NCBI RefSeq assembly: GCF_001049895.1
Contig: NZ_CVPE01000006.1
Location: 176,441-208,440, forward strand
Source: Rubeoparvulum massiliense
GTDB taxonomy: Bacteria; Bacillota; Bacilli; Rubeoparvulales; Rubeoparvulaceae
Reading direction: 5' to 3'
Length of the DNA stretch: 32,000 bases
Below the pieces are notes generated by a model that was not told the origin of the DNA, did no database searches, and worked only from the letters and a program-made list of their open reading frames with translations. A program made the translations under genes and the position numbers. This document shows, in pieces, positions 5,434-25,444 of this stretch; within the stretch, counting starts at the first letter, position 1; each line of letters begins with the position of its first letter.

Positions 5434-6555
5434 ATGACAGAGAAAGAGCGACAAATATTACAGATCATTAAGGAACAGCCTTTTTTATCACAGGCGGAGC
5501 TCGCTGAACGGTGTGGCTTATCACGGTCAGCTGTGGCAGGCTATATTTCACAATTGATGAAAAAGGGTGAGATTATTGGACGTGCCTATATTCTCCGTGA
5601 GCATGCTCCCATTACCTGCATCGGGGGCGCTAATGTGGACTGGAAGGCGCAGGCCCTCGATCCCTTTGAAATGTATACATCCAATCCAGGCAAGGTGGAT
5701 AAATCTACCGGCGGTGTGGCACGTAATATGGCGGAGAATTTAGCCCGCTTAGGGGTAGAGGTGCAGTTGGTTAGTATCGTCGGTCGTGATGAAGAAGGGG
5801 AATGGCTCCGTGAGCAAACAGCAGCCAATGGTGTGGATGTCCATGGCATTATTCAGTCCGTCACATCGCGGACAGGCAGTTACATGGCTGTCATCAATGG
5901 TGCAGGTGAGATGGTGACCGCCATTGCCGATATGGGAATTTATGATGAGCTGACACCGGATCAGCTCTCCCATCTTCAAGCGCGTCTTGCCAAGTCAGAC
6001 TGGCATGTGCTAGACACCAACATCCCTAAAGAGACCATTGAATCCCATATCAAGTTTGTGAAGGAGCGGGGAGGTAAGGTGGTCGTTGATCCTGTCTCCA
6101 ATGTGAAGGCCATGAAGCTGCGGGATACGCTTTCCCTCATCGATGTCTTTGTTCCTAATCGCTATGAAGCAGCGGCCTTAACTGGAATTGATACATCCAC
6201 GCTGGATGGCTGCATCGATGCAGTGCAGTATTTCCGCCAGCTGGGGGTAGAGCTGCCGATAATCACCATGGCGGAGCAAGGTGTGCTCTTTGCCAATTAC
6301 GATGGGATCTTCCAAGTGACATGTAACCCAGTGCCTGTAAAGGACGTAACGGGTGCAGGTGATGCCTTTGCCGCAGGCTTAATCTACGCACTTCATCAAG
6401 GTGAGGAAGACCTGATGGCGATCCAATGTGGCATGAATACGGCCAATATCACCATTCAATCCAGTCAGACCGTCGCCCCAGAGATGTCCTTGGATACCAT
6501 GCGGCGCGAGTTGAAGCAGACTGAGTTTCATGTGAAGCGCTTGTCTAAACGTTAA
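5434..6555 (+). CDS. psuK: Pseudouridine kinase (PfkB family) with an N-terminal winged-helix DNA-binding domain
   Basis: The N-terminus, MTEKERQILQIIKEQPFLSQAELAERCGLSRSAVAGYISQLMKKGEI, is a wHTH domain. It is followed by a PfkB ribokinase-like body (GGANVD...GGVARNMAENLARLG...DVTGAGDAFAAG). It lies directly upstream of psuG, the usual pairing. GAGGTGG RBS. Confidence 0.85.
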   Translation: MTEKERQILQIIKEQPFLSQAELAERCGLSRSAVAGYISQLMKKGEIIGRAYILREHAPITCIGGANVDWKAQALDPFEMYTSNPGKVDKSTGGVARNMAENLARLGVEVQLVSIVGRDEEGEWLREQTAANGVDVHGIIQSVTSRTGSYMAVINGAGEMVTAIADMGIYDELTPDQLSHLQARLAKSDWHVLDTNIPKETIESHIKFVKERGGKVVVDPVSNVKAMKLRDTLSLIDVFVPNRYEAAALTGIDTSTLDGCIDAVQYFRQLGVELPIITMAEQGVLFANYDGIFQVTCNPVPVKDVTGAGDAFAAGLIYALHQGEEDLMAIQCGMNTANITIQSSQTVAPEMSLDTMRRELKQTEFHVKRLSKR

Positions 6556-6590
6556 CAGCAAAGAATAACTAGAGAAAGGGGTCATAGCAC

Positions 6591-7502
6591 ATGAAAGAGT
6601 ACATGGTGATTCATCCAGAAGTTGCAGCAGCATTAGCAGCTCATCAACCAGTCGTCGCATTAGAGTCAACGATTATTTCCCATGGGATGCCCTATCCCGA
6701 TAATGTGGAGACGGCATTGGCTGTGGAGGAGGTCATCCGTCAGCAGGGTGTTGTTCCTGCTACCATCGCAATCCTACAGGGGAAGATCCATATTGGCTTG
6801 ACGAAGGACGAAATTGAATACTTAGGTAAGGCAACCGGCGTACGCAAGGTGAGCCGTCGCGATTTCCCTGTGGTCTTGGCGAAGGGCTTAGACGGTGCTA
6901 CCACAGTGGCTGCCACCATGATCTGTGCAGAGCGAGCAGGTATTCCTGTCTTCGTTACAGGAGGAATCGGTGGTGTACATCGGGGCGCAGAAACCACCAT
7001 GGATATCTCCGCCGATTTACAAGAGCTAGCTCATACCAATGTGGCAGTAGTCTGTGCAGGGGCCAAGTCCATCCTCGATCTGGGCTTAACCCTAGAATAC
7101 CTAGAAACATTCGGCGTTCCAGTGGTTGGCTATCAAACCGAGGACTTTCCTGCCTTCTTTACACGGAAGAGCGGCTACGGTGTAGATGTAAGCGCAGAGA
7201 ATCCTGAGGATGTGGCAAAAATGATGAAGGCCAAATGGGATCTTCAGCTCCATGGTGGGATGGTCATCGCCAACCCCATTCCGGAAGCAGATGCCATGTC
7301 CAATGAGGAGATGGAAGGGATTATTCAGCAAGCGCTACAGCGTGCTGAAGCCGAAGGGATTAAAGGGAAGCGAGTTACCCCCTTCCTCCTCTCAGAAGTG
7401 AAGGAGGCCACCCATGGGCGGAGCCTCGTGGCCAATATTGCTCTGGTGAAGCATAATGCAGTGGTAGGGGCGGCTATTGCCAAGGCCTATGCGGCTCTCT
7501 AG
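6591..7502 (+). CDS. psuG: Pseudouridine-5'-phosphate glycosidase
   Basis: Strong YeiN/IndA-family signature: [86 protein letters not shown]. Confidence 0.93.
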
Positions 7503-7572: not shown

Positions 7573-7609
7573 AAAAAGGTGGCGGTAAATGGAACCGTCA
7601 CCTTTTTTT
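7573..7609 (+). terminator. Rho-independent terminator after psuG
   Basis: AAAAAGGTGGCGGT-aaatgga-ACCGTCACCTTTTTTT: a 10-bp GC-rich stem with one G-U pair, followed by a T7 run. Confidence 0.8.
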
Positions 7610-7611
7610 CA

Positions 7612-7640
7612 TTGTCAACAAGAGTTATTTGGCGTACAAT
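7612..7640 (+). promoter_or_regulatory. cad operon promoter
   Basis: TTGTCA (7612-7617), a 17-nt spacer, then TACAAT (7635-7640), immediately upstream of and overlapping the operator palindrome. Confidence 0.65.
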
Positions 7641-7665
7641 ACATTCAAACAGACATTTGAATGTA
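7640..7665. promoter_or_regulatory. CadC (ArsR/SmtB) operator, 10-6-10 perfect inverted repeat
   Basis: TACATTCAAA-cagaca-TTTGAATGTA. It has the same TCAAA..N..TTTGA core as the staphylococcal pI258 cad operator as I recall it. It sits between the -10 element and the cadC start. Confidence 0.7.
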
Positions 7666-7669
7666 AGGG

Positions 7670-8038
7670 ATGATGATGATGGTAGCAGATCGCTGTGATA
7701 TCTATCAATTTGATAAAAATAAAGTGGAGCATAGTCAAACAGCATTGGCCCAAATTCCTGCAGAGGGGATGGTGGCCATCTTTAAGGCGTTGGCCGATGC
7801 CACAAGGATGAAGGTAGCCTATGCACTCAGTATTGAAGCGGAGCTCTGCGTCTGTGATGTAGCCAATATTATCGGTGCCTCCACTGCCACGGCCTCTCAT
7901 CATCTGCGCTATCTCTTAAAGCGCCAGGTGGTAAAATTTCGTCGCGATGGGAAGATGGTCTATTACTCCTTAAAGGATGAACATGTGAAGCAGCTCTTAG
8001 AAATCGCCTACCTCCATGCAAAGGAGGAACAACGATGA
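7670..8038 (+). CDS. cadC: ArsR/SmtB-family Cd/Zn/Pb-responsive repressor CadC
   Basis: ELCVCDVANIIGASTATASHHLRYL (the alpha-3 CVC metal site plus the HTH) and an N-terminal Cys (DRCDIYQFD). It is translationally coupled to cadA by an ATGA overlap. The start may be one of four consecutive ATGs at 7670-7681. Confidence 0.9.
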   Translation: MMMMVADRCDIYQFDKNKVEHSQTALAQIPAEGMVAIFKALADATRMKVAYALSIEAELCVCDVANIIGASTATASHHLRYLLKRQVVKFRRDGKMVYYSLKDEHVKQLLEIAYLHAKEEQR

Positions 8039-8115
8039 GCTCAGAAGCGATGAAGCAAGTTTGGCGTGTACAGGGTTACTCCTGAGCAGACTGTGCTGCT
8101 CAGTTTGAGCAGAAT
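8035..8115 (+). other. cadA: Orphaned 5' end of cadA: start codon and N-terminal part of the HMA domain, containing an in-frame TGA (8083-8085)
   Basis: ATG 8035 has AAGGAGG 7 nt upstream and is in frame with the 8116 ORF. The translation is MSSEAMKQVWRVQGYS*ADCAAQFEQN, against the canonical CadA sequence YRVQGFTCANCAGKFEKN. The stop occupies the position of the first Cys of the CxxC motif. Confidence 0.8.
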
Positions 8116-10185
8116 GTGAAGAGGATTCCAGGTGTTGTCGATGCGAAAGTGAACTTTGCTGCAGCGAAAATAACTGTCTGGGGTGAGGTTAGTCGTGAAG
8201 CAGTGGAGGAAGCTGGTGCCTTTGAAAGCTTAAAACTGATGGAGGAGCAGGCCACCTTCACTGACCAGAAGGTTCCTATTTGGAAACGTCCTACCTTCTA
8301 CCAGGTGGTGGGGAGTGGACTCTCGCTCATCCTAGGTTGGTGGACACTGCTTACTGATGTGGAGGAAATCTGGCCTACCTTCTTCTTCGTCTTTACCATT
8401 ATTTTGGGCGGATATGCGCTAATTTGGCGCGGGTTAACGAACCTGACACGCCTCCGCTTTGACATGAGTACATTGATGACGGTTGCTATTCTTGGTGCTG
8501 GTGCATTAGGAGAATGGGGAGAAGGAGCGACCCTCGTCTTTCTCTTTGCCATCAGTGAATGGCTTGAGCGTATCTCCATGGATCAGGCCCGCTCCTCGTT
8601 GCGTAATCTACTGGAGTTGGTGCCACCCGTTGCCCAAGTGATACAAGGAGATGAAGTGATTGCTACCCCTGTTGCGGAAGTGCACCCTGGCGCACGCTTA
8701 TTAGTTCGTCCAGGGGAACAGATTCCCCTAGATGGCATCGTTGTGAAAGGTCTCTCAGCGGTGAATCAAGCGGCCATTACAGGGGAAGCGGTTCCAGAGC
8801 AGAAGCAGCCTGGCGATCCAGTCTATGCTGGTACCTTGAATGGTGATGGCTTGCTCGAGGTAGAAGTGACGAAGGAAGCAGAGGAGAGCACCTTAGCCCA
8901 GGTGATTCAGCTAGTAGAAGAAGCACAGGAGAAGAAGGCACCTGCTCAACAGCTGGTAGATCGCTTTGCCCGCTATTATACCCCCTTGATTATCGCCATC
9001 GCTGGGGCGGTAGCCATTCTGCCTCCACTCTTGGTAGGTCAGGATTGGCAGGCTTGGATCTACCGTGGTCTAGCCATTCTCGTGGTAGGCTGCCCTTGCG
9101 CCTTAGTGATTTCTACACCGGTTGCCATCGTCACAGCTGTTGGCAATGCAGCACGTAATGGTGTACTCATTAAAGGCGGTGCCTATCTTGAAGAGGTGGG
9201 GCGACTCACCACCATCGCCTTCGATAAAACAGGCACCCTAACCCAAGGTAAGCCGCAGGTTACCGATGTGATTCCCCTTGCCGCAGGAGTGGGAGGATCT
9301 GATCTACTTCTCCTTGCCCATCAGCTAGAGGAAGGCTCCAATCATCCATTGGCCACAGCCATTCATCAAGCGGTGGAGGATGGCAAGCTAAAGGGATCCC
9401 CACAACGAGAGCTCATGGAATTTCGAAATCTCCCTGGGAAAGGGATTACCGCCACCATTGCAGGGAAGTCGTACCGCTTGGGACAGAGTAATTGGCTGCT
9501 TTATGAGGAGAAGGTACAATATACGCCTGTCGTGGAGGAATGGATTGAACGCCTTGAGCAGGCAGGCAAAACGGTGATGCTCTTAGCTGATGAGGGGCAG
9601 ATTCTTGGAGTCCTTGCAGCACGTGATGAGCTACGGCCAGAGATCCCCCATGTGGTTCGGACTTTGAAGGAGCTGGGCTTGAAGCATACGGTGATGCTAA
9701 CAGGGGATCATCAACAAACAGCCGTAACCTTGGGAGCTGAAGCAGGCATCGATCAGGTTCAAGCACAGCTCTTACCAGAGGAGAAGCTACGCTATATTGA
9801 GGAACTTGCTCAGCAGGAGCGCGTTGCCATGGTAGGCGATGGCATCAATGATGCGCCGGCGCTGGCTCGCGCCCATGTAGGTATCGCTATGGGTGGCATT
9901 GGTACTGCTGCTGCCATGGAATCGGCACAGATCATTTTGATGGCTGATGATTTACAAAAGCTGCCCTTTACCGTTCGCTTAAGCAGAAGAACCCTGCGGA
10001 TTATTCGCGAGAATATTACAGTGGCGTTGGGATTAAAGCTATTCGCACTCATCTTGATCATCCCAGGTTGGCTGACACTCTGGATGGCCATTTTTGCCGA
10101 TATGGGGGCTACCTTATTGGTGACATTGAATGCATTGCGTCTGCTCCGTGTGAAGAACCACGAAGTGTGCAGAACTGCTGAGTAG
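8116..10185 (+). CDS. cadA: Cd2+/Zn2+/Co2+-translocating P1B-type ATPase CadA (longest uninterrupted ORF; the ancestral start is at 8035)
   Basis: The rest of the HMA domain is present (VKRIPGVVDAKVNFAAAKITVWG). So are the TM metal site VGCPCALVISTP, the phosphorylation site FDKTGTLT, the HP motif (SNHPLA) and the hinge VGDGINDAPALA. Apart from the upstream TGA, the reading frame is intact. Confidence 0.85.
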   Translation: MKRIPGVVDAKVNFAAAKITVWGEVSREAVEEAGAFESLKLMEEQATFTDQKVPIWKRPTFYQVVGSGLSLILGWWTLLTDVEEIWPTFFFVFTIILGGYALIWRGLTNLTRLRFDMSTLMTVAILGAGALGEWGEGATLVFLFAISEWLERISMDQARSSLRNLLELVPPVAQVIQGDEVIATPVAEVHPGARLLVRPGEQIPLDGIVVKGLSAVNQAAITGEAVPEQKQPGDPVYAGTLNGDGLLEVEVTKEAEESTLAQVIQLVEEAQEKKAPAQQLVDRFARYYTPLIIAIAGAVAILPPLLVGQDWQAWIYRGLAILVVGCPCALVISTPVAIVTAVGNAARNGVLIKGGAYLEEVGRLTTIAFDKTGTLTQGKPQVTDVIPLAAGVGGSDLLLLAHQLEEGSNHPLATAIHQAVEDGKLKGSPQRELMEFRNLPGKGITATIAGKSYRLGQSNWLLYEEKVQYTPVVEEWIERLEQAGKTVMLLADEGQILGVLAARDELRPEIPHVVRTLKELGLKHTVMLTGDHQQTAVTLGAEAGIDQVQAQLLPEEKLRYIEELAQQERVAMVGDGINDAPALARAHVGIAMGGIGTAAAMESAQIILMADDLQKLPFTVRLSRRTLRIIRENITVALGLKLFALILIIPGWLTLWMAIFADMGATLLVTLNALRLLRVKNHEVCRTAE

Positions 10186-23332: not shown

Positions 23333-25444
23333 ATGAAAGATGATGAATTTTTAATAAATGGCCAGGCCTTGCCTCCACTACTTGAAGTAGGCCGAGAACT
23401 TCTTCATGTACTGAACGAAGCAGGCTATGAGGCTTATTTTGTTGGCGGTGCAGTACGAGATTATTTGCTCCATCGGCCCATTCACGATGTGGATATTACA
23501 ACCAATGCCTTGCCCGATGAGGTGGTTCAGCTCTTTCCAGCCGTAATCCCAACAGGAATGGCTCATGGTACGGTGACGGTACGCTGGAAGGGCTTCTCCT
23601 TTGAAGTCACCACCTTCCGCACCGAGGGAGAGTACCTCGATCACCGACATCCTGCAGCGGTTCAATTCGTTCATTCCCTCACGGAGGATCTAGCCCGCCG
23701 TGACTTAACCATCAATGCCATGGCCATGGATGGGGAGGGGAAGCTATACGATCCCTATGGAGGGAGGGAGGATCTTCAGAATCGGCTGTTGCGAGCGGTA
23801 GGTGATCCTCAACAACGTTTTGCTGAGGATGCCCTGCGGATGATCCGTGTTTTCCGTTTTCAGTCACAGTACCAATTTCAGATTGAAGAGACCACGTTGC
23901 AGGGCATCAAGGCGGAAAGAGGTGGTCTTCCTCTAATTGCTGCAGAGCGGATCGCCGATGAGTTTTGCAAGCTTCTTCGTGGACCAGGGTTTCTCCATGC
24001 CCTTCAACTGCTCGCGCAATTTCTTGTGCTTCAGCATCCTCGCTTACCTATACTGGAAAAACTGGTGAAGCATCCACCTGCTCTGTTCTTGCAGAGACGG
24101 ATAGATTCCCTCCACTTCCTGGCTGAAGAGCCAATGGACCCACTGATTCTCCGGCTCTTATTACTTGGGCACATGGCCACGCTCAGTGAAGCAGAGTTTA
24201 GTAAATTGGGCTATGAGCTATTTTTGCCCCGCGAGACGCGAAGGCTTCTCACAAGCTCCTATGGCTTACTCAGTGAATGGATTGAAGAGAAGTATGCAGA
24301 GAATCACTGGAAGGCAGAATGGCTGGATCTGCCACAGGAATGCATCGCCTATACGTGGGCGGCCTATTGGATCTGTGGGAAGCTCAGCAAGGGAGAGCAA
24401 GAGATAGCTGAGCTTGGGGGTGCAAATCTTCATGAGCTCTATCAATCAGAACGTAGCCAGTGGCAACGTTTCTATGAGGAACTCCCCATCCGTCACTCCC
24501 AGGAATTGCAGCTCGATGGAAACCTGCTGCTGCAGTTGATTCCTGTAGCAGCAGGACCATGGATTGCGCGACGGCTAGAGCAACTGGTCTTGGCTGTTCA
24601 TATGGGGCATCTTAAGAATGATCGTGAGGAGCTATGCCACTTTCTGCAGCAGGGCTATGCCGAAGAACTGCAAATCCGTGAGCATCTTCATACTGAATGG
24701 CTAGGTCACCAACTCTATGTCCTACCTGTAGTGGATAGCACGCAACGGGAAGCACAACGACTGTGGAAAAAGGGTGGTGCTAATGGAACGGTGGTGGTAG
24801 CACAGCATCAAACTGCTGGTCGTGGTACGAGAGGACGAATCTGGCATTCGCCTCCACAATCAGGAGCTTGGTTTAGTATGCTCTTGCAGCTCCCCATCGA
24901 TCTTAAGAGGGCACCTATCATCACCCTCCTTACAGCGGTGGCACTTTATGAAACATTGCTCAACTGGTGTCAACCAGAACAGCTTCAGATTAAATGGCCC
25001 AATGATCTCCTTCTAGCAGGGAAGAAATGTGCAGGTATCTTAACAGAGCTACATCATCATGATGAGCATGGTGCTCAATTGGTCATCGGTGTTGGGGTCA
25101 ACCTGAACCAGGAGCACAATGACTTTCCAATGGAATTACAGGAGCACGCAACCTCCTTAGCTATGGGAACTGGCGAAAAGGTCCAACCTTCATTGCTGAT
25201 TGCCTTATTCTTAGCTAAAATGGAGGAATGGCTGGCCCTATATCAACAAGAAGGAAATTCGGCTGTGCTTCATGCATGGACAAGCTATGCTGGAATGATC
25301 GGTCAACGGGTCATGACACAGCTAGAAGGCAAGGATACCAATGTGATTATCCATGGCTTGGATGAGCAGGGTAGACTCCTTCTCCTTGATAAGCAGGGTA
25401 CTATTCACACTTTAGTTTCAGGGGAGATCAGACTCAATCCTTGA
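23333..25444 (+). CDS. cca/birA: Fusion protein: CCA-adding tRNA nucleotidyltransferase (residues 1 to ~442) joined in frame to the catalytic and C-terminal domains of biotin-[acetyl-CoA-carboxylase] ligase BirA (residues ~443-703); the BirA wHTH domain is absent
   Basis: Cca part: AYFVGGAVRDYLLHRPIHDVDITT, RRDLTINAMAMD, FAEDALRMIRVFRF, and the C-terminal GPWIARRLEQLVLAVHMGHLKNDREEL (B. subtilis has GKWVSEELQWIEQAVVTGKLSNQKKHI). BirA part: from A443 (nt 24659), AEELQIREHLHTEWLGHQLYVLPVVDSTQ...VVAQHQTAGRGTRGRIWHSPP..GAWFSMLL...IKWPNDLLLAGKKCAGILTE is collinear with B. subtilis BirA from about residue 68 onward. It is a single uninterrupted 703-codon ORF. Confidence 0.85.
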   Translation: MKDDEFLINGQALPPLLEVGRELLHVLNEAGYEAYFVGGAVRDYLLHRPIHDVDITTNALPDEVVQLFPAVIPTGMAHGTVTVRWKGFSFEVTTFRTEGEYLDHRHPAAVQFVHSLTEDLARRDLTINAMAMDGEGKLYDPYGGREDLQNRLLRAVGDPQQRFAEDALRMIRVFRFQSQYQFQIEETTLQGIKAERGGLPLIAAERIADEFCKLLRGPGFLHALQLLAQFLVLQHPRLPILEKLVKHPPALFLQRRIDSLHFLAEEPMDPLILRLLLLGHMATLSEAEFSKLGYELFLPRETRRLLTSSYGLLSEWIEEKYAENHWKAEWLDLPQECIAYTWAAYWICGKLSKGEQEIAELGGANLHELYQSERSQWQRFYEELPIRHSQELQLDGNLLLQLIPVAAGPWIARRLEQLVLAVHMGHLKNDREELCHFLQQGYAEELQIREHLHTEWLGHQLYVLPVVDSTQREAQRLWKKGGANGTVVVAQHQTAGRGTRGRIWHSPPQSGAWFSMLLQLPIDLKRAPIITLLTAVALYETLLNWCQPEQLQIKWPNDLLLAGKKCAGILTELHHHDEHGAQLVIGVGVNLNQEHNDFPMELQEHATSLAMGTGEKVQPSLLIALFLAKMEEWLALYQQEGNSAVLHAWTSYAGMIGQRVMTQLEGKDTNVIIHGLDEQGRLLLLDKQGTIHTLVSGEIRLNP

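Follow-up and report, generated by a model that had tools for sequence, protein, structure and literature searches.

A UGA codon at the metal-binding site of the Rubeoparvulum massiliense CadA ATPase is a probable selenocysteine codon

We analysed a 32,000-nucleotide stretch of the Rubeoparvulum massiliense genome (contig NZ_CVPE01000006.1, positions 176,441 to 208,440; hereafter the window), which carries a cadC-cadA operon in which codon 17 of cadA is an in-frame UGA. Judged from sequence comparisons, this UGA is probably decoded as selenocysteine (Sec) at present, a reading to which we give a probability of about 80%, and the operon would on the same odds encode a 716-residue Cd/Zn/Pb-exporting P1B-type ATPase with U17-A-D-C20 in its HMA motif. 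The proposal rests on two observations: the codon alternates strictly between UGA and Cys codons in related cadA genes, and a hairpin that follows the UGA is conserved by compensatory changes in genes of the UGA form and missing from those of the Cys form.

The UGA codon and its counterparts in related cadA genes

The reading frame of cadA is MSSEAMKQVWRVQGYS-TGA(8083-8085)-ADCAAQFEQNVKRIPGVV, with no further stop until the TAG at 10183-10185, and the peptide across codon 17 is VQGYS-U-ADCAAQFEQNVK. An earlier note on this DNA, made from the sequence alone, had described an orthodox start for the gene, with an ATG at 8035, AAGGAGG 7 nt upstream, and an ATGA overlap with cadC; all of these can be read in the sequence, the cadC stop (TGA 8036-8038) overlapping the cadA ATG (8035-8037). 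When the stop is replaced by C, CadA residues 11-59 match the Pfam HMA domain, and residues 5-72 (68 residues) align with the metal-binding domain of Listeria CadA (2AJ0, E = 1.9e-21), an alignment that pairs codon 17 with the first Cys of the Listeria CTNC motif. This alignment, together with the homologous loci described below, confirms the note's placement of the TGA at the first Cys of a CxxC motif in which the second Cys is retained. The note's statement that the remainder of the gene is undamaged also held, because all 699 codons 3' of the TGA are intact and the CPC (residues 353-355, 9091-9099), DKTGT (residues 397-401, 9223-9237) and GDGIND (residues 601-606, 9835-9852) motifs are in place. 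With Cys at codon 17, the protein scored 616 bits against TIGR01525 (cut-off 346) and 523 bits against the cadmium subfamily TIGR01512; by TIGR01525/COG2217 and by its CPC, DKTGT and GDGxND motifs it is a heavy-metal P1B-ATPase, and the proposed Sec opens the UxxC motif of its N-terminal HMA domain.

Contigs from SRR29904084, another and independent run of this strain, match the window at 100% identity and contain the TGA, which was also present in a second strain that is 99.3% identical (SRR33304997 and SRR33304998), in which positions 8035-8190 are identical. A sequencing or assembly error at 8085, one of the explanations raised in the note, thus found no support, and as the codon recurs in contigs of three other runs from two strains we regard its probability as negligible. 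Elsewhere TGA behaves as a normal stop; it ends 6 of the 30 open reading frames (ORFs) in the window, that of cadC included, so the codon is not globally reassigned. When the window was scanned for further ORFs interrupted by TGA in frame, no other selenoprotein candidate emerged.

The alignment of cadA with its relatives that the note had proposed was carried out on the best 80 CadA loci from GTDB species representatives, in each of which we read the codon aligned with codon 17. This codon was TGT or TGC in 60 of the 80 loci and TGA in the other 20, and neither another stop nor another amino acid was found at this position among them. The UGA therefore aligns with Cys in homologues and recurs in orthologues of other species, including Cytobacillus firmus, Bacillus benzoevorans and members of Niallia, Robertmurraya, Litchfieldia, Melghiribacillus, Anaerobacillus, Indiicoccus, Aquibacillus and Ammoniphilus. 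Since one and the same codon is TGA in a quarter of the species, independent nonsense mutations are not credible. A Sec/Cys pattern of this kind underlies the SECIS-independent prediction of selenoproteins (PMC13188914), where SECIS stands for selenocysteine insertion sequence.

No other CadA is more than 56% identical to the R. massiliense protein, and R. massiliense proteins in general are 38-56% identical to anything else. The protein collection searched held no CadA relatives at 60-95% identity, and the comparison of close orthologues is for that reason confined to the two strains.

Some features of the compared loci are recorded here for their own sake. In Cytobacillus firmus DS1, cadA paralogues of the Cys form and of the Sec form (L035 and L040) occur within one genome. 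Two contigs that bear Bacillales-type cadA genes, L009 (a metagenome-assembled genome, MAG, labelled "Candidatus Bathyarchaeia archaeon") and L005 (a "Haloplasmataceae" MAG), are probably mis-binned; the metal-binding-site region of L005 is identical to that of a Planifilum contig, L006. A 1237-residue match from JGI (P0002) was set aside as an unrelated tandem double ATPase with 47% identity.

Conserved hairpins downstream of the UGA

The note had drawn two mutually exclusive hairpins around the codon, one enclosing the UGA (8082-8103) and one just after it (8096-8112), and had compared the layout of the latter with that of bacterial SECIS elements. Both are present exactly as drawn. The downstream hairpin has a spacer of 10 nt after the UGA, a distance of 17 nt from UGA to loop, and a predicted free energy of -8.3 kcal/mol. 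Published criteria for bacterial SECIS (bSECIS) elements ask for a loop of 3-9 nt that begins with G and then G or U, an upper stem of 4-16 bp, a UGA-to-loop distance of 16-37 nt, and a free energy of -7.5 kcal/mol or lower (PMC13188914). With its 3-nt GUU loop and 7 bp, the R. massiliense hairpin satisfies every one of these, and the likeness suggested in the note was further strengthened by the covariation described below. Like the bSECISearch consensus, it is a stem-loop directly 3' of the UGA within the coding region, with G and then U opening a small loop; it differs from that consensus in being a short perfect stem of 7 bp capped by three loop nucleotides (five, AGUUU, should the closing A-U pair open), and in having neither a bulged U nor a conserved longer lower helix. 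The experimental archetype of such elements is the SECIS of Escherichia coli fdhF, the minimal form of which has a similar spacer of about 10-11 nt.

Four other Bacillales genomes (L019, L041, L055 and L051) carry a hairpin of the same design, and together with the window we refer to them as class A. All have the same 10-nt spacer, 7-bp stem and GUU loop in the same register, and RNAalifold returned the stem as the consensus structure. In this set 97% of the cells were paired, as against 26-46% when the partner strand was slid, and three of the seven pairs showed double compensatory changes (U-A to C-G, G-C to U-A, and A-U to G-C). We then scanned metagenomes with a pattern consisting of the TGA and the invariant core, which fixed four pairs and left three free. 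Eighteen contigs matched, every one of them in frame at the sequence xG(F/L/M/I)(T/S)-U-AxC of CadA-like HMA domains. All three free pairs were complementary in 16 of the 18, in five combinations, where about 5% would be expected by chance. When class A and the metagenome matches were pooled (15 distinct sequences), 98.1% of cells were paired and 13 showed double changes; none of 500 shuffles reached these values, and the slid controls gave 27-47%.

A covariance model trained on the four other class-A genomes, with the window left out, scored positions 8083-8115 at 49.6 bits (E = 2.6e-11), and its next match in the 32-kb window scored 10.3 bits. Over 1.5 Mb of loci, the scores were 47-51 bits for the training sequences, 31 bits for the best Cys-form, and at most 18.6 bits for all others.

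Among genes of the Cys form, none of the 56 distinct sequences had a hairpin that reached -7.5 kcal/mol, the best being -5.5 kcal/mol, and the hairpin energies of Sec-forms and Cys-forms differed strongly (Mann-Whitney p = 6e-11). The peptide encoded by the hairpin, AAQFEQ, does not account for it: Cys-forms that share the identical peptide use non-pairing codons (e.g. GCT GCA CAG TTC GAA CAA), and under uniform codon use we calculate that AAQFEQ would yield the full stem and the loop G in about 1 case in 256. The hairpin is thus conserved with compensatory changes and is not found in Cys-form homologues. Despite the distance between R. massiliense CadA and its relatives, the RVQGxS strand before the UGA is retained and the 13-nt core of the SECIS candidate is identical to that of three of the four other class-A genomes; we conclude from this that the UGA and its SECIS candidate form a long-maintained module.

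The hairpin that encloses the UGA fared differently. In the other class-A sequences it is 90% pairable, but 355 of 500 shuffles did equally well; its pairability follows from columns that are invariant, and there is no covariation beyond these. Of the note's pair of alternatives, the UGA-enclosing one is left with no covariation support of its own.

The stretch also contains a 13-nt direct repeat in which 12 of 13 positions are identical. Its first copy (8083-8095, TGAGCAGACTGTG) begins at the UGA, and its second (8106-8118, TGAGCAGAATGTG) forms the 3' arm of the SECIS candidate and extends into the GTG at 8116. In other class-A sequences 8-10 of the 13 positions are kept, as counted by eye, and the repeat is probably a by-product of the complementarity between UGAGC and GCUCA.

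Fifteen further Sec-form loci (L073, L020, L018, L074, L048, L069, L042, L049, L064, L040, L047, L076, L062, L033 and L068), which we call class B, come from hosts that include Cytobacillus firmus, Bacillus benzoevorans and Niallia (e.g. L040, L073 and L047). They share the UGA codon and the protein family with the R. massiliense gene, from which they differ in the RNA that follows the codon. Instead of a single 7-bp stem, the 75 nt counted from the TGA contain two tandem hairpins, ACGUUC-GAAGA-GAACGU and AAACGCC-UGGAU-GGCGUUU. Both show compensatory changes, and in the second helix a change from G-C to A-U coincides with an amino-acid change between Arg and His. L054, the one Cys-form checked from the class-B clade, has lost both hairpins. 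The class-B proteins form a tight clade, and their DNA is near-identical in Cytobacillus, Paenibacillus and Sporosarcina; this near-identity suggests that class-B cadA has spread horizontally.

Decoding of the UGA and the alternatives

ATPases with Sec in a UxxC motif are not new. The Sec-containing cation-transporting ATPases (E1-E2) are a published predicted selenoprotein family (PMC1976440, PMC2398784, PMC5029168, PMC13188914), and the R. massiliense locus accordingly belongs to a family already known. The prototype, ABB15669.1 of Carboxydothermus hydrogenoformans, has the sequence ...LTGCSUQSCAAVLEERVKKLPGV (Zhang and Gladyshev, PMC1976440, PMC2398784), and Peng et al. (2016) listed 32 family proteins in 25 organisms (PMC5029168). 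Both ABB15669.1 and R. massiliense CadA fall in TIGR01525/COG2217, have Sec as the first residue of the UxxC of an N-terminal HMA domain, and are predictions; they are also similar in local sequence (GCS-U-QSC-AAVLEERVKKLPGV in the prototype and GYS-U-ADC-AAQFEQNVKRIPGV in R. massiliense). This likeness is drawn on the protein. They differ in the host, which is here a gut member of the Bacillales that branches deeply and has a CadA no more than 56% identical to others, and in the setting of the R. massiliense gene in a classical cadC-cadA operon. Cys-form CadA proteins such as those of Staphylococcus aureus pI258 and Listeria monocytogenes (2AJ0 and 2AJ1) share the operon layout, the domain order and the CPC, DKTGT and GDG motifs, and the R. 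massiliense gene departs from them in that its first metal-ligand Cys codon is UGA and that a hairpin lies within the codons of helix 1 (AAQFEQ).

We envisage the following course of events. Transcription would start from the candidate promoter TTGTCA-17-TACAAT (7612-7640), overlapped by the CadC-operator-like repeat at 7640-7665, and ribosomes would start at ATG 8035 with translation coupled to that of cadC. With UGA 8083 in the A site, the UGA-enclosing pairing would already be melted, and the hairpin at 8096-8112 could form just outside the ribosome footprint and serve as a bacterial SECIS. Its G-U loop would tether SelB-GTP-Sec-tRNA(Sec), so that Sec would be inserted instead of termination taking place, and the resulting selenolate-thiolate pair of U17 and C20 may be a cytosolic capture or regulatory site for Cd, Zn or Pb. 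In this scheme we infer the binding of SelB, the actual insertion of Sec in R. massiliense, the metal specificity, and any advantage of Se over S.

Several observations weigh against the decoding of this UGA as Sec. The window and the contigs that overlap it, the part of the genome that was searched, contain no selA, selB, selD or tRNA-Sec. ARAGORN predicted no tRNA gene in the window, where no Rfam family scored above its gathering score either, and found no tRNA-Sec over all compared loci; tblastn of E. coli SelA, SelB and SelD against the window and the compared loci gave weak GTPase similarity only. The SECIS candidate is short, for the naked RNA the fold of minimum free energy is the competing hairpin at 8082-8103, and the folding-energy z-scores of -0.38 (8083-8142) and +0.35 (8060-8180) are not significant against shuffles; the comparative tests are decisive for the hairpin at 8096-8112 and supersede these folding-energy statistics. 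The literature cited above on the UxxC ATPase family reports no biochemical confirmation for any member, and a 2026 review describes these transporter selenoproteins as "predicted" and their roles as ones that "require further investigation" (PMC13188914). Finally, when 8035-10185 of the window was compared with contigs L001 and L084, cadA differed between the strains by 2 synonymous and 6 non-synonymous changes and one codon indel, as against 46:15 (synonymous:non-synonymous) in neighbouring genes (Fisher p = 0.008, or p = 0.05 if just the differences common to both second-strain contigs are counted). An excess of non-synonymous change in cadA could reflect relaxed constraint. The counts are tiny, however, because the synonymous divergence (dS) of cadA is very low (0.004, several-fold below that of many neighbouring genes; the between-strain ratio of non-synonymous to synonymous divergence, dN/dS, is about 1). 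Most of the sites that differ are variable in the family, and at the conserved sites S53 and V409 the non-consensus residues (S53R and V409I) belong to the other strain.

These strain differences bear most directly on the possibility that cadA is a fossil, a Sec-form gene in a lineage that has recently lost Sec decoding, such that the UGA now terminates translation and either nothing useful is made or a pump lacking the HMA domain arises by inefficient re-initiation at GTG 8116. The skewed ratio and the codon indel fit this explanation, as do the public annotation of an ORF from GTG 8116 and the absence of sel genes from a search that covered the window and its overlapping contigs. Such genes should be short-lived, however, and here the UGA, the SECIS candidate, the Shine-Dalgarno sequence, the ATGA coupling, the first 16 codons and the catalytic motifs are all intact in both strains, cadA has neither frameshifts nor extra stops, and the window strain holds the consensus at S53 and V409. 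GTG 8116 has no Shine-Dalgarno sequence upstream, and a product begun there would miss strand 1 of the HMA domain and the metal loop. We consider a fossil gene unlikely, and we reserve for it a small but appreciable share of the probability on account of the confined search for the Sec machinery and the strain differences in cadA. The note had instead favoured a recent nonsense mutation, which would have turned TGY into TGA in a Cys-form cadA of the ordinary kind and left a pseudogene or a truncated pump. One base change would suffice, the gene is annotated as truncated, and the between-strain dN/dS of about 1 is compatible with it. The mutation would nevertheless have had to strike one particular codon of 716, and to strike it in a gene with a pre-existing perfect hairpin at synonymous positions, which occurs in 0 of 56 distinct Cys-forms. 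With the same TGA in 20 other species, and the conserved covarying hairpin in TGA forms only, we regard a nonsense mutation as very improbable. The codon comparison and the hairpin instead support what the note had offered as its alternative, the recoding of the UGA as Sec to give a UxxC site.

If near-cognate tRNA-Trp or tRNA-Cys read through the UGA independently of SelB, codon 17 would be translated as Trp or Cys, and in Bacillus subtilis tRNA-Trp does decode UGA at a low level. This explanation seems just as hard to credit as a nonsense mutation, since it accounts neither for the conserved covarying hairpin nor for the strict alternation of Cys and UGA codons, and Trp would destroy the metal site. 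The full UxxC pump might also be made with Se only, and a stop at the UGA followed by re-initiation at GTG 8116 would, when Se is lacking, give a pump devoid of the metal-binding domain, with the UGA-enclosing hairpin as the switch. GTG 8116 lies 3' of the SECIS arm that ends at 8112, inside the second copy of the direct repeat. Heavy-metal export would, if this is true, be tied to selenium status; we think such a toggle improbable. The note had also thought Sec unlikely in a Bacillales genome, a view contradicted by the 2016 survey (PMC5029168), which lists about 60 Bacillales that use Sec in its Table S2, several of them with 5-10 selenoproteins; Rubeoparvulum is not among the organisms in the tables and supplements of that survey. 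Decoding as Sec thus remains our preferred reading of UGA 8083.

The cad operon, its annotation and neighbouring genes

The features of the operon are collected in the table below. CadC has the N-terminal Cys (C9) and the CVC motif. A co-oriented gene of the ArsR/SmtB family directly 5' of cadA and an inverted-repeat candidate operator at the candidate promoter give the locus the appearance of a cad operon, and we take the inverted repeat to resemble the cad operator of pI258. Directly upstream lies a psuK-psuG pair (5434-7502), which encodes a pseudouridine kinase (PfkB, with N-terminal helix-turn-helix domains) followed by a pseudouridine-5'-phosphate glycosidase (Indigoidine_A).

Table. Positions of features in and around the cadC-cadA operon (window numbering)
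Feature	Position	Strand	Remarks
psuG terminator-like hairpin, 14-bp stem then T run	7573..7607	+	5' boundary of cad operon
Candidate sigma-A promoter of cad operon, TTGTCA-17 nt-TACAAT	7612..7640	+	10/12 consensus matches, nothing beyond consensus
Candidate CadC operator, perfect 10-bp inverted repeat TACATTCAAA-N6-TTTGAATGTA	7640..7665	.	Overlaps -10 hexamer
cadC, ArsR/SmtB-family metalloregulator, 122 residues	7670..8038	+	Pfam HTH_5; NF033788, 89.8 bits
Shine-Dalgarno sequence AAGGAGG, 7 nt 5' of cadA ATG	8021..8027	+	Read directly from the sequence
Full-length cadA, P1B-type Cd/Zn/Pb ATPase	8035..10185	+	716 codons including one UGA; stop TAG 10183-10185
Alternative 8-bp hairpin enclosing UGA	8082..8103	+	8082-8089 pairs with 8096-8103; excludes SECIS stem
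UGA codon 17, first position of U-A-D-C in HMA loop	8083..8085	+	Proposed selenocysteine codon
TGT, second Cys (C20) of UxxC	8092..8094	+	Kept; sequence reading
SECIS candidate, 7-bp stem, GUU loop 8103-8105	8096..8112	+	8096-8102 pairs with 8106-8112
689-residue ORF from GTG, public (NCBI) form of gene	8116..10185	+	No good Shine-Dalgarno sequence upstream

We consider the 689-residue ORF from GTG 8116 to be a truncated mis-annotation, and the annotation would be corrected from a "truncated" ATPase of 689 residues to a selenoprotein of 716. In Bacillales species representatives, roughly one in four of the closest CadA loci is probably mis-annotated in the same way. R. massiliense mt6 was isolated from the gut, is facultatively anaerobic and forms spores, and its 16S rRNA is only 92% similar to that of the nearest described species (PMC5198730); our reading implies that this deep-branching Bacillales of the human gut uses Sec. 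No new mechanism is revealed; the importance of the locus lies in its annotation and in the experimental handle that it offers. The compact SECIS candidate (10-nt spacer, 7-bp stem and GUU loop) comes with natural compensatory variants, and natural Sec/Cys pairs at the metal site should be useful for asking what selenium contributes to the handling of Cd, Zn or Pb.

Other genes of the window were noted in passing. DinG has the same amino-acid sequence as WP_048601878.1 of Rubeoparvulum massiliense. In a single ORF of 703 residues (23333-25444), a CCA-adding enzyme (PolyA_pol domains) is joined to a biotin-protein ligase (BPL_LplA_LipB and BPL_C), apparently without the N-terminal helix-turn-helix of BirA, and the same fusion is found in L003. 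At 908-2920, the gene for a 527-residue protein that matches no Pfam family lies 4 nt ahead of one for an Imm70 immunity protein; the two are probably a polymorphic toxin/immunity pair.

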